Below are positions 45,001-47,880 of a stretch of 47,880 nucleotides of DNA, in pieces; positions within the stretch are counted from its first letter, which is position 1; the number at the start of each line of letters is the position of its first letter. The position numbers were made by a program. The stretch comes from a virus (lineage: Duplodnaviria; Heunggongvirae; Uroviricota; Caudoviricetes): the IMG/VR virus record IMGVR_UViG_2880412407_000003, positions 1-47,880 of that record. One strand, given 5' to 3'.

Positions 45001-47880
45001 TCGCGCTGAGTTATGCATCGGTGAAGAAAAGTGACACGATGAAGACGGGTGAAAATACCTTCCATTATGAAAGCCTGCGCGGTCGTTATGTCAGTCTGAT
45101 GGCCGGGATGGCGTACACCCGCTGGTCTGACAGTGTTCAGGATTACCGGCGTGATGAAGTGAAACCGGGGTATGTGAAGGAGACCACCACCGCCAGTGAT
45201 GGCCATACTGCGCGTCATCTGTCGCCGGCCTGGAATGCCGGGATTCAGTTCAGTCCCGTAGAGACGGTGGTTATTGACCTTGCTTATGAAGGTTCCGCCA
45301 GTGGCGACTGGCGCACTGACGGCTTCATCGTGGGTATCGGCTATAAATTCTGATTAGCCAGGTAACACAGTGTTATGACAGCCCGCCGGTTCAGGCGGGC
45401 TTTTTTGTGGGGTGAATATGGCAGTAAAGATTTCAGGTGTACTGAAAGACGGCACAGGAAAACCGGTAGAGAACTGTACCATTCAACTGAAAGCCAGACG
45501 GACCAGCAGCACGGTGGTGGTGAACACGGTGGCCTCTGAAAATCCGGATGAAGCCGGTCGTTACAGCATGGACGTTGAGTACGGTCAGTACAGCGTCATT
45601 CTGTTGGTGGAAGGATTCCCGCCGTCACATGCCGGGACCATCACCGTGTATGAAGATTCTCAACCGGGGACGCTGAATGATTTTCTCGGTGCCATGTCGG
45701 AGGATGACGTCCGTCCGGAGGCACTGCGTCGTTTTGAACTGATGGTGGAAGAAGCAGCGCGTCACGCAGAGGAGGCGAAGAAGAATGCCGGAGAAGCAGA
45801 GACGTCCGCGAGGAATGCCGGCATATCAGCCAGTAAGGCGGAAGCGAGCGCCGCAAATGCTGATACTTCAGCAGAGGATGCATCGGAGTCAGCCCGGCAG
45901 GCGGCAGAAAGTGCAGCCGCTGCAAAGCAGTCAGAGGAGGCGTCCTCGTCCTCGGCCTCTGCGGCCGCTCAAAAAGCCAGTGAGTCATTACAAAGTGCAG
46001 CAGAAGCTGAATTGTCAAGAAAGACGGCAGAAAGTGCAGCCGGTAATGCAGCCAGGGATGCAACGACCGCAACAGAAAAAGCCCGGGAGTCAGCAGAAAG
46101 CGCACAGTCAGCGGAACAAAGCAGGATAGCGGCGGAAGAGGCCGTAAACCGAATCCCCACCGTGGTGGGACCTCCCGGGCCAAAGGGGGAACAGGGGCCC
46201 GCGGGTCCTCAGGGGCCGAAGGGTGATAAGGGAGAGCGCGGTGACACCGGCCCTGTCGGGGCAACCGGCGAACGGGGACCGGCAGGTGATGCTGGTCCGG
46301 CAGGCCAGCAGGGGCCGAAAGGTGACAGGGGAGAGCGGGGAGAGACCGGTCTGACGGGAAATGCAGGTCCACAGGGTCCAAAGGGAGATACCGGTGCGGC
46401 AGGCCCGGCAGGCCCACAGGGACCGAAAGGAGAAACAGGTGCGGCTGGCCCGGTGGGGGCAACCGGACCTCAGGGACCGAAGGGCGACCCGGGGGAGACA
46501 CAAATCCGTTTTCGTCTGGGGCCGGGAAACATTATTGAGACAAACAGCCATGGCTGGTTCCCGGATACAGATGGTGCGCTCATCACCGGACTGACCTTTC
46601 TTGACCCCAAAGATGCCACACGGGTTCAGGGTTTTTTTCAGCATTTGCAGGTCAGGTTTGGTGACGGGCCGTGGCAGGATGTTAAGGGGCTTGATGAAGT
46701 GGGCAGTGATACAGGCAGAACAGGAGAATGACATGAACATACTAAAAAAACTTATGCAGCGTCTGTGCGGTTGCGGAAAGCATGATGGCCGTGAACACGG
46801 GCAGTCGCTTACAGCACAGCTGCGACTGGGACCGGCAGACATTCTGGAGTCCGATGAGAGTGGCATTATCCCGGAGCAGGACAGGGTAATCACGCAGGTG
46901 GTGATACTGGATGCGGATAAAAAGCAGATACAGTGTGTGGTAAGACCGCTGCAAATCCTGCGTGCTGACGGGAGGTGGGAAAATATTGGCGGGATGAAGT
47001 AACCCGACAGCTTCACAAAAACCGGAGTCCGGCTCCGGTTTTTGTTGGTTAGATGTAATCTGACAGATACCTGTATAAATAACCGGTAACTGTCAGGTCA
47101 GAGCTAATACAGGTAATTATATTATAATCACGAGCGCTTAGATGTATTAATACCATGCTCTGCAAGATGCTGCATCAGACGCTGAGCCACATCAGGCAGA
47201 GGTCTTGATTGTTCATTTTGTACCGGCGGCGTTGGCGCAGGCCAGTTAGGTGCCGGAGGAATATATTCAGCCATATTCCGGGCTGGTTGAATGCCATGCT
47301 CTGCAAGATGCTGCATCAGACGCTGAGCCACATCAGGCAGAGGTCTTGATTGTTCATTTTGTACTGGCGGTGGTGGCGCAGGCCAGTTAGGTGCCGGAGG
47401 AATATGTTCAGCCATATTCCGGGCTGGTTGAATGCCATGCTCTGCAAGATGCTGCATCAGACGCTGAGCCACATCAGGCAGAGGTCTTGATTGTTCATTT
47501 TGTACTGGCGGTGGTGGCGCAGGCCAGTTAGGTGCCGGAGGAATATGTTCAGCCATATTCCGGGCTGGTTGAATGCCATGCTCTGCAAGATGCTGCACCA
47601 GACGCTGAGCCACATCAGGTAGAGGCCGATGTAAAGCGTTTTTTTCTATACTTGACTGAGTATAAGATGTGGGACGTTGAAGTCCTGATTCTGTATAAGA
47701 ATTTTTTACCTTAAAAATAGTTGTTGCACTGGCAGGACTGTTGCTGGGAGAAAAAGGTGAGCTGGTTTTTACCGTGTTAGGTGTGCTTTTGTGCTGCGAG
47801 ACAGTGAAGGTACTGCTGCGTATAGCACTTGATATACTGCGAGGAAGGCTGGAAAAAAAAGAATTAATGCTATTTATCAT

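Follow-up and report, generated by a model that had tools for sequence, protein, structure and literature searches.

The window, that is, the whole 47,880-nt stretch of DNA analysed here, carries near its end a side tail fibre gene, stf, followed immediately by a small open reading frame (ORF) encoding 89 aa. The former (45418..46731, + strand) specifies a collagen-like fibre of the EPclA type, made up of PfN, a coiled coil, collagen Gly-X-Y repeats, and PfC, an architecture as in ECs2717 (PMC3368898). It is a PGAP coding sequence in the 99.8%-identical record NZ_CP027351; counted from the PGAP ATG, Stf is 437 aa long, and the longest ORF reaches upstream to a GTG at 45412. Pfam matches to Stf are PF08400 (phage_tail_N; 6e-69), PF01391 (Collagen), and PF06820 (Phage_fiber_C or PfC; 3.2e-35), the last covering the family end to end (positions 1–64 of 64) at Stf residues 365–428 as numbered from the longest ORF (46504..46695, +). 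This fused PfC, a trimerisation and collagen-nucleation domain, is predicted by AF2 to be a beta domain (pLDDT ~84). It is followed by a C-terminal tail (46696..46728, +), which alignment places only in fused copies and which is predicted to be disordered (pLDDT <50 in AF2 for the last 12 Stf residues).

The small ORF (46733..47002, +) starts with the ATG at 46733, 1 nt past the stf stop codon TGA (46729–46731), and ends with a stop codon at 47000–47002. Its Shine-Dalgarno sequence, AGGAG (46722..46726, +), can be read within the final codons of stf, 6 nt ahead of the ATG, and 83 of the 86 loci sampled share an identical junction, GGAGAATGACATG; translation of the ORF is coupled to that of stf. 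The late operon ends with this cistron, for which no separate promoter was found and whose ribosome-binding site lies inside stf, so the 89-aa protein is made with the late proteins. The operon is closed by an intrinsic terminator hairpin, AAAAACCGGAG..CTCCGGTTTTTG (47015..47050, no strand assigned; MFE −22.7 kcal/mol, z = −4.25), which stands between it and a convergent EspF-repeat effector gene; a similar hairpin also lies downstream of the Salmonella orthologue.

The encoded protein begins with an N-terminal extension (46733..46780, +) in which a short amphipathic helix, MNILKKLMQRL (residues 3–12 predicted helical by AF2, with low confidence), precedes a Cys-Gly-Cys-Gly-Lys motif; M-x-I-[LF]-KK..L.GC.K is the pattern common to this protein and its Salmonella orthologue (P0224). 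A zinc or cystine-knot role for the motif found no support, since 5 of 110 haplotypes have another residue in place of C14 and Salmonella has its Cys residues at different positions; a lipoprotein or secreted protein was rejected, the hydrophobic core being absent, by inspection, ahead of the CGCG motif. The variable linker that comes next (residues 17–27; 46781..46813, +) is predicted to be disordered (pLDDT <50), holds most polymorphic sites of the standalone copy, and is deleted in the Salmonella orthologue. Residues 28–89 (46814..46999, +) form the PfC' domain, predicted by AF2 as a six-strand beta domain (pLDDT 84–91).

The original prediction, that this ORF resembles the last ~65 residues of Stf, is confirmed. 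BLASTP returned a single significant segment (E = 4e-10), aligning ORF residues 29–88 with Stf 366–427 at 21/62 identities (34%) and 60% positives. Set against shuffled controls, the Smith-Waterman score of 95 is significant (27.4 ± 4.0 in 2,000 shuffles, maximum 49; z = 16.8), with the same outcome when only the non-collagen Stf tail was shuffled. The proposed motif series (QLRLGP / I.E / G..P / D..IT / LD / DG.W) corresponds to conserved alignment columns, and structure prediction of both segments as monomers (AF2) gives fused PfC and standalone PfC' the same beta-strand order. At family level, residues 28–89 match PF06820 over positions 1–64 of 64 with 123.3 bits (E = 5.2e-36; the gathering score of the family is 25 bits), and the PHROG 576 profile matches at full length (residues 1–89 versus 1–89 of 89; E = 3.4e-59). 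The protein has PF06820 alone, without the PfN, coiled coil, and collagen shaft that the preceding gene possesses, and is thus not itself an EPclA-type fibre. Pfam gave no match of the protein to PF02413 (Caudo_TAP, Tfa) at E ≤ 1, nor did NCBIfam, and no Pfam match to Peptidase_S74, an intramolecular chaperone domain, was found on either Stf or the small ORF. A PDB sequence search with PfC returned no match, and an exhaustive search of 1.84 billion representatives with an HMM yielded only 94 hits, nearly all of them E. coli or Salmonella fragments; multi-repeat hits to SprB, CarboxypepD_reg proteins, and a mussel protein were dismissed as repeat or low-complexity matches. In one distant homologue (P0233), a single chain carries four tandem PfC-like units.

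A standalone, lone PfC domain is not new: the homology is already recorded in Pfam, PGAP, and PHROGs, and a 2016 publication discussed it. The PGAP product name is ‘phage tail fiber C-terminal domain-containing protein’ (WP_032212659), and GenBank labels the gene ‘tail fiber assembly chaperone’ in phage 434 and ‘alternate tail fiber tip’ in phage AU5Stx1. The same gene is ORF68 of Sp5 (VT2-Sakai) and gp59 of phi24B (92–100% identical, 89 aa, directly after a PfC-tipped fibre gene), although it resides here in a lambda-like siphoviral prophage with an EPclA-type Stf and there beside a podoviral EPclB fibre. Mondal et al. (2016) described the 89-aa ORF68 after the Sp5 fibre gene, suggested a ‘reservoir’ role, and listed it as non-essential on K-12, both for forming plaques and for lysogenisation, whereas the fibre gene, ORF67, was essential (PMC5155283).

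The gene pair recurs in lambda-like siphophages (434, 2B8), podoviral Stx phages (933W/phi24B type), and Salmonella prophages, in one of which a gene for a non-collagen 212-aa fibre overlaps the small gene by 14 nt. The small gene occurs in nearly every lambdoid or Stx prophage of EHEC that has a collagen-like fibre, a single genome often holding ten copies or more, and collagen-like fibres are thought to influence the spread of phages carrying Shiga toxin and effectors. All standalone copies in the sampled loci (86/86) lie at the stf junction, and an adjacent copy was found for 76 of 77 PfC-tipped fibres in an independent sample, restricted to fibres with room downstream, the exception being a frameshifted copy. 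The PfC tip and the 89-aa gene are inherited as a two-gene module, grafted onto different fibre shafts and phage morphotypes.

Strong purifying selection acts on the small gene at the codon level. Its pN/pS is 0.148 overall and 0.094 in the domain (at pS ~0.12), versus 0.242 for fused PfC, and 63 of 65 nucleotide alleles are intact, versus 49 of 56. Between E. coli and Salmonella, identity is 63% for the standalone copy and 39% for the fused tips, the paralogues being 30–33% identical to one another; this conservation pattern fits a partner that would have a conserved job and not a specificity determinant. Standalone pseudogenes occur in 0 of 101 loci with an intact fibre ORF versus 3 of 19 with a disrupted one (Fisher estimate p ~0.003), an intact small ORF persisting in the other 16, and the standalone gene is likewise a pseudogene in a remnant in Salmonella whose fibre is truncated. 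Alleles of the two PfC copies, fused and free, occur in shuffled combinations, with no more linkage between them than their adjacency would predict. The 89-aa ORF is a real gene, and its product is a free-standing paralogue of PfC, the C-terminal domain through which the collagen-like fibre trimerises and which forms its tip.

That the protein is made is indicated by proteomics of phi24B, in whose gradient-purified virions two gp59-specific peptides were detected at trace level (3 PSMs each), compared with 47 PSMs for one peptide of the fibre's PfC tail and 2267 for the whole fibre. These trace peptides could be contamination, and gp59 is not reported among the modelled phi24B virion proteins. 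The Stf tip itself is not cleaved off, since the Stf C-terminal peptide is present in virions.

Several known systems offer points of comparison. The PfC of EPclA (ECs2717; PMC3368898) belongs to the same Pfam family and has the same AF2-predicted beta-strand order as the standalone copy, but is only 30–34% identical to it; compared with fused PfC, the standalone copy has an N-terminal helix, a Cys motif, and a linker instead of a collagen shaft, is without the C-terminal tail, and evolves more slowly. Tfa of lambda and the assembly chaperones of Mu and P2 (PF02413) occupy the same place right after stf and are swapped along with the fibre tip as one module; the small gene likewise lies directly downstream of the fibre gene and is co-inherited with the tip, as judged from 83/86 identical junctions, its presence beside 76/77 PfC-tipped fibres, and conservation of the pair in Salmonella. 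In contrast to these chaperones, the standalone protein originated from the tip domain of the fibre itself, can be dispensed with where the fibre cannot, and has neither sequence similarity nor significant fold similarity to them: a fold search reached the Mu fibre–chaperone complex 5yvq at E = 0.43 only, and the matching chain was the fibre. In Alteromonas phages A5 and V22, whose partners are described as ‘transient chaperone caps’ (PMC10579305), a fibre and partner module is likewise shared among distinct morphotypes, and the A5 fibre chaperone is conserved though dispensable, functional fibres forming without it (PMC10579305); the proteins are, however, unrelated, those of Alteromonas resembling intramolecular chaperone domains and not a fibre knob.

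Of the roles proposed at the outset for the ORF, a chaperone derived from the fibre C-terminus is the best remaining idea, although not in obligate form: an obligate chaperone is unlikely because Sp5 is viable without ORF68 while requiring its fibre, and because the recombinant full-length fibre (rEPclA) trimerises in E. coli without the small protein (PMC3368898). We tentatively favour, while conceding that it may well be wrong, a reading in which the tip domain gave rise to a helper or cap for the fibre tip that is sub-stoichiometric and dispensable. The 89-aa protein, composed of a short helix at its N-terminus and a PfC-like beta domain, would most likely act in trans on the tip, stabilising or templating PfC monomers, perhaps as a transient cap, while the three fibre chains come into register, so that fibres might assemble with better yield or fidelity; it would be neither an obligate chaperone, nor a permanent tip subunit, nor a recombination cassette. 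Experiments (SEC/MALLS) on PfC of ECs2717 established that it drives trimerisation as a module and re-nucleates the collagen helix (Ghosh et al. 2012, PMC3368898), and expression of an isolated PfC construct was undetectable unless it was fused to thioredoxin (PMC3368898), for which reason a holdase would be useful. A bolder version, which we consider possible but rather unlikely, is that this would be the first tail-fibre helper to have arisen from the duplicated C-terminal nucleation domain of the fibre itself, transiently co-assembling with or capping nascent PfC and registering the three collagen chains; it would represent a chaperone class unrelated to Tfa, gp38, gp57A, and intramolecular S74 domains, one restricted to collagen-like fibres of prophages that carry Shiga toxin and effectors. 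Whether the small paralogue builds, caps, or modifies the fibre bears on the function of the conserved lateral fibres, listed as a question in the phi24B cryo-EM study, and on the engineering of collagen-like trimerisation modules.

The alternative that fares best, though we think it improbable, is a minor structural accessory or adhesin: a small trimer that would use its N-terminal helix to dock on the distal PfC knob, or on another part of the virion, and would add or modify receptor binding on natural hosts, like gp38 of T2-type phages. Dispensability on K-12 would be expected of such a protein, its peptides are found in gradient-purified phi24B virions, and the residues that vary in the standalone copy (43, 50, 61/65, 81) and in fused PfC (25, 30, 47/49) lie in homologous loops; the tandem of four units in P0233 shows that such domains can stack along a fibre. 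Yet the protein is far sub-stoichiometric to the fibre (~6 PSMs versus 2267) and absent from the reported modelled virion proteins of phi24B, and its conservation, far greater than that of the fused tip (63% versus 39% between E. coli and Salmonella), is the opposite of what adhesins usually display.

Less probable still is the intragenomic reservoir of Mondal et al. (2016), which corresponds to the alternative tip or host-range cassette of the original prediction and in which the ORF is kept as raw material for grafting a new tip onto the fibre by recombination. Besides the label in AU5Stx1, rare deletion chimeras that fuse the copy to the fibre speak for it: one (P0061) joins the collagen repeats straight to PfC' at an 11-nt microhomology, and another (P0179) joins the N-terminal half of a standalone copy to the C-terminal half of a fused PfC. 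These chimeras are single sequences or, for P0061, a cluster of four, mostly in fragmentary or degraded loci, and the two coding segments share 52% nucleotide identity and no word longer than 7 nt. Such values are far below the needs of RecA or Red recombination. The invertible tips of the Mu G and P1 C segments also place a second tip-like coding segment beside the fibre gene, but the standalone copy is oriented as stf and has its own start codon and ribosome-binding site; the only inverted repeats are short, chance ones, none of them flanking it, and neither an invertase nor a reverse transcriptase gene lies nearby. In a silent cassette, moreover, there would be no need for the ATG, the Shine-Dalgarno sequence, and the N-terminal extension to be conserved or for codons to be under purifying selection, and this protein is made. 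The cassette idea is thus weakly supported at best.

We give about as little credence to a role outside virion assembly, that of a moron-like gene at the effector-rich prophage end serving, for example, superinfection exclusion or host interaction. The gene is the last before the terminator, in the neighbourhood of lom, the EspF-repeat type III effector gene, and tRNA-Ser, is non-essential for the phage, and is often intact where the fibre gene is broken. Lacking its own promoter and with its ribosome-binding site inside stf, it is nevertheless made with the late proteins; neither a signal peptide nor a convincing lipobox was seen by inspection, and no match to anti-phage defence systems was obtained with PADLOC. 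Its constant companion is a PfC-tipped fibre, while the effectors alongside vary, and it decays in remnants with a truncated fibre.

A programmed +1 frameshift at the stf stop codon, from which a minor form of the fibre with two tandem PfC domains would result, is very improbable. The small ORF does occupy the +1 frame, separated from the stop by 1 nt, and the SD-like AGGAG ends 2 nt short of the stop codon, an arrangement that recalls prfB. The MS database of the phi24B authors also includes fusion entries labelled ‘Spike or just gp59?’, but these exceed the fibre entry in one sample only, a low-molecular-weight gel band, and the junction peptide does not appear in the accessible part of the phi24B MS text. 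The P-site codon GAA would probably re-pair poorly on AAU, Mondal et al. found no frameshift signal (PMC5155283), and the 14-nt overlap at the Salmonella junction indicates that the geometry is not conserved; an apparent in-frame fusion allele (a 1-nt deletion at one locus) seems to sit in a decaying locus.

A non-functional duplication scar or pseudogene, the remaining proposal of the original prediction, would suit a small, dispensable ORF homologous to the end of the preceding gene, but is hardly credible and is rejected given the pN/pS of 0.15, the 63/65 intact alleles, the orthologue conserved at 63% identity in Salmonella prophages, and the phi24B peptides; the genuine scars of this gene nearby are frameshifted fragments and look different.

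At its right end the window covers the tail-fibre region of a lambda-like prophage, with, in order, J, lom (44742-45353), stf (45418-46731 from the ATG annotated by PGAP; the ORF extends to a GTG at 45412), an 89-aa ORF directly after stf (46733-47002) and a strong terminator hairpin (47015-47050; -22.7 kcal/mol, z=-4.25). Convergent to the fibre operon, a minus-strand gene for an EspF-repeat effector (47128-47880) reaches the window edge; it is TccP/EspFu-like (type III) and encodes four 47-aa proline-rich repeats (Pfam EspF, 5.5e-109). The last 8.6 kb of the window are 99.8% identical to an E. 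coli 2014C-3655 prophage adjoining tRNA-Ser and hya. The collagen-like side tail fibre encoded by stf has the EPclA architecture (Ghosh et al. 2012, PMC3368898): PfN (PF08400), an Ala/Glu-rich coiled coil, Gly-X-Y collagen and the C-terminal trimerisation domain PfC (PF06820).

As originally predicted, the 89-aa ORF shares this C-terminal module. Its residues 29-88 align with Stf 366-427 at 21/62 identities (BLASTP, E=4e-10), the Smith-Waterman score of 95 lies well above shuffled controls (27 ± 4 over 2000 shuffles; z=16.8), and each segment covers the whole PF06820 profile (Pfam, ~1e-35). AF2 monomer models of the free domain (PfC') and the fused PfC place beta strands in the same order (domain pLDDT ~84-91); only the free copy has an N-terminal helix (residues 3-12, low confidence) and a disordered linker, and only the fused copy a disordered 12-residue tail. 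Searches for fold relatives found none of known function.

This is a correct reading of a gene already annotated and already discussed in print. The PGAP product name is ‘phage tail fiber C-terminal domain-containing protein’, the ORF belongs to PHROG 576 (a family of 89 positions), and GenBank depositors have used ‘tail fiber protein’, ‘tail fiber assembly chaperone’ (phage 434) and ‘alternate tail fiber tip’ (AU5Stx1). ORF68 of the Stx phage Sp5, 92% identical to the window copy, was placed among the non-essential late genes, with a proposed role as an intragenomic reservoir (Mondal et al. 2016, PMC5155283); the small ORF is absent from the discussion in Ghosh et al. (PMC3368898).

Rather than a scar, the small ORF is a functional gene. 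Of 86 copies (IMG/VR and phage records), 83 share the same junction, GGAGAATGACATG; of 65 distinct alleles at nucleotide level, 63 are intact; and in a second sample, picked by fused PfC alone, the ORF follows 76 of the 77 fibres that have room downstream, the exception being a frameshifted copy. Pairwise pN/pS (at pS ~0.12) is 0.148 for the whole ORF, 0.094 for PfC' and 0.34 for the N-terminal extension, against 0.242 for the fused PfC.

Fibre tip and small ORF together are a mobile module, found with EPclA fibres in siphophages 434 and 2B8 and with the EPclB fibre in podoviral Stx phages. In Salmonella enterica an orthologue follows a 212-aa non-collagen protein with a divergent PfC end; this 79-aa product (P0224) is encoded by a gene preceded by AGGAGG and overlapping the fibre gene by 14 nt; 3' of it lie a terminator of similar kind and genes for type III effectors. 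Between E. coli and Salmonella the PfC domains are 63% identical in free copies and 39% in fused tips, and the paralogues share 30-33%. The duplication therefore goes back a long way, and the tip changes faster than the free copy. Exhaustive searching of 1.84 billion representatives with the profile gave only 94 matches. Among them, PfC-like domains are clearly repeated within a single chain in one protein only, a distant homologue: the collagen protein P0233 (L167 3505-5202; metagenome run SRR17035117), with four tandem units of ~90 aa each N-terminal to its collagen segment.

The best-supported mechanism, put forward tentatively, is that the 89-aa protein would serve fibres ending in PfC as a helper or transient cap that derives from the tip, is dispensable and works at sub-stoichiometric levels. 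The original suggestion of a chaperone derived from the fibre C-terminus survives in this form but not in an obligate one: Sp5 needs its fibre but can do without ORF68 (PMC5155283), and recombinant fibre alone forms trimers (PMC3368898). Expression of an isolated PfC construct was undetectable without a thioredoxin fusion (PMC3368898). In a set of 120 different haplotypes, disruption of the small ORF was seen in 0 of the 101 whose fibre ORF is open and in 3 of the 19 whose fibre ORF is disrupted (Fisher estimate, p ~0.003). In a Salmonella prophage remnant the orthologue (L168 4398-4634) carries an in-frame TAG, has lost its N-terminal cysteines and adjoins a fibre gene cut down to 136 aa. The small ORF may thus depend on the fibre, but the evidence is modest because it stays intact at 16 loci whose fibre ORF is disrupted.

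Virion proteomics of phi24B (bioRxiv 10.64898/2026.04.10.717836), in the part covered here, includes two peptides unique to the small-ORF equivalent gp59, ADGTWENIGGMK and VITQVVILDADKK, so the protein is made. Each has 3 PSMs, compared with 47 for one 11-residue fibre peptide and 2267 for the whole fibre; in these data the free copy co-purifies with virions only at a trace, sub-stoichiometric level, and the authors label its database entry ‘Spike or just gp59?’. In the same study the lateral fibres have their PfC tips directed towards the capsid, and these tips are probably not BamA binders; the tip of the gp56 central needle shows unassigned globular density, suggested to be a receptor-binding protein. 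A minor virion accessory is an unlikely reading, and a role outside the virion less likely still.

Equally improbable is a recombination reservoir for fibre tips, the alternative-tip or host-range cassette of the original prediction. The free and fused coding segments are 52% identical with a longest shared word of 7 nt, insufficient for homologous recombination; flanking inverted repeats and an invertase were not found at the locus, and the small ORF has its own start codon and RBS. Chimeras do exist: in P0061 (L166 4-291), known only from a 3.3-kb contig, an 11-nt microhomology (GGGACCGGCAG) joins collagen repeats straight to PfC', and the product would be a fibre tipped by the alternative PfC. 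Partners of the small gene's 3' part in this and other chimeric ORFs (P0071, P0092, P0029, P0002, P0179) are collagen repeats, J, Lom, or a CII-like or tape-measure-like protein. However, such chimeras are rare, being single sequences (P0061, a cluster of four) mostly on short contigs, and they resemble products of deletion within prophages that have degraded.

A +1 frameshift joining stf to the small ORF is very improbable. The geometry is suggestive (an SD-like sequence 2 nt 5' of the UGA, the small ORF in the +1 frame), but GAA-to-AAU re-pairing would be poor, the arrangement is not kept in Salmonella, the junction peptide is absent from the covered part of the phi24B proteome (10.64898/2026.04.10.717836), and Mondal et al. 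(PMC5155283) found no frameshift signal. The duplication scar once proposed is, given the constraint and intactness of the ORF, scarcely credible. A genuine scar of the small gene does occur in 2B8-type phages, ~700 nt downstream, frameshifted, covering residues 37-85 at 73% identity, and illustrates how decay of this gene looks. Such degraded third copies of the 3' half (73-76% identical; L003 4954-5100, also L033, L035, L040, L049 and L070) lie past an inserted 180-aa gene 3' of the intact one, and look like the footprint of a moron insertion or exchange anchored on the small gene's end.

Upstream, the tail-tip gene J (41183-44709) consists of two ORFs, one of 934 aa that ends at 43987 and one of 229 aa that starts at 44020. 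It is a single 1158-aa CDS in NZ_CP027351, the record with 99.8% identity, where 10 mismatches and 4 gaps opened separate the two sequences across 8.6 kb, so that either J is defective in the window prophage or the split reflects sequencing indels. Between lom and the stf start lies a strong terminator-like hairpin with a T-run (45380-45401; AGCCCGCCGGTTCAGGCGGGCT TTTTTGTGGG), and stf expression presumably depends on late antitermination through it.
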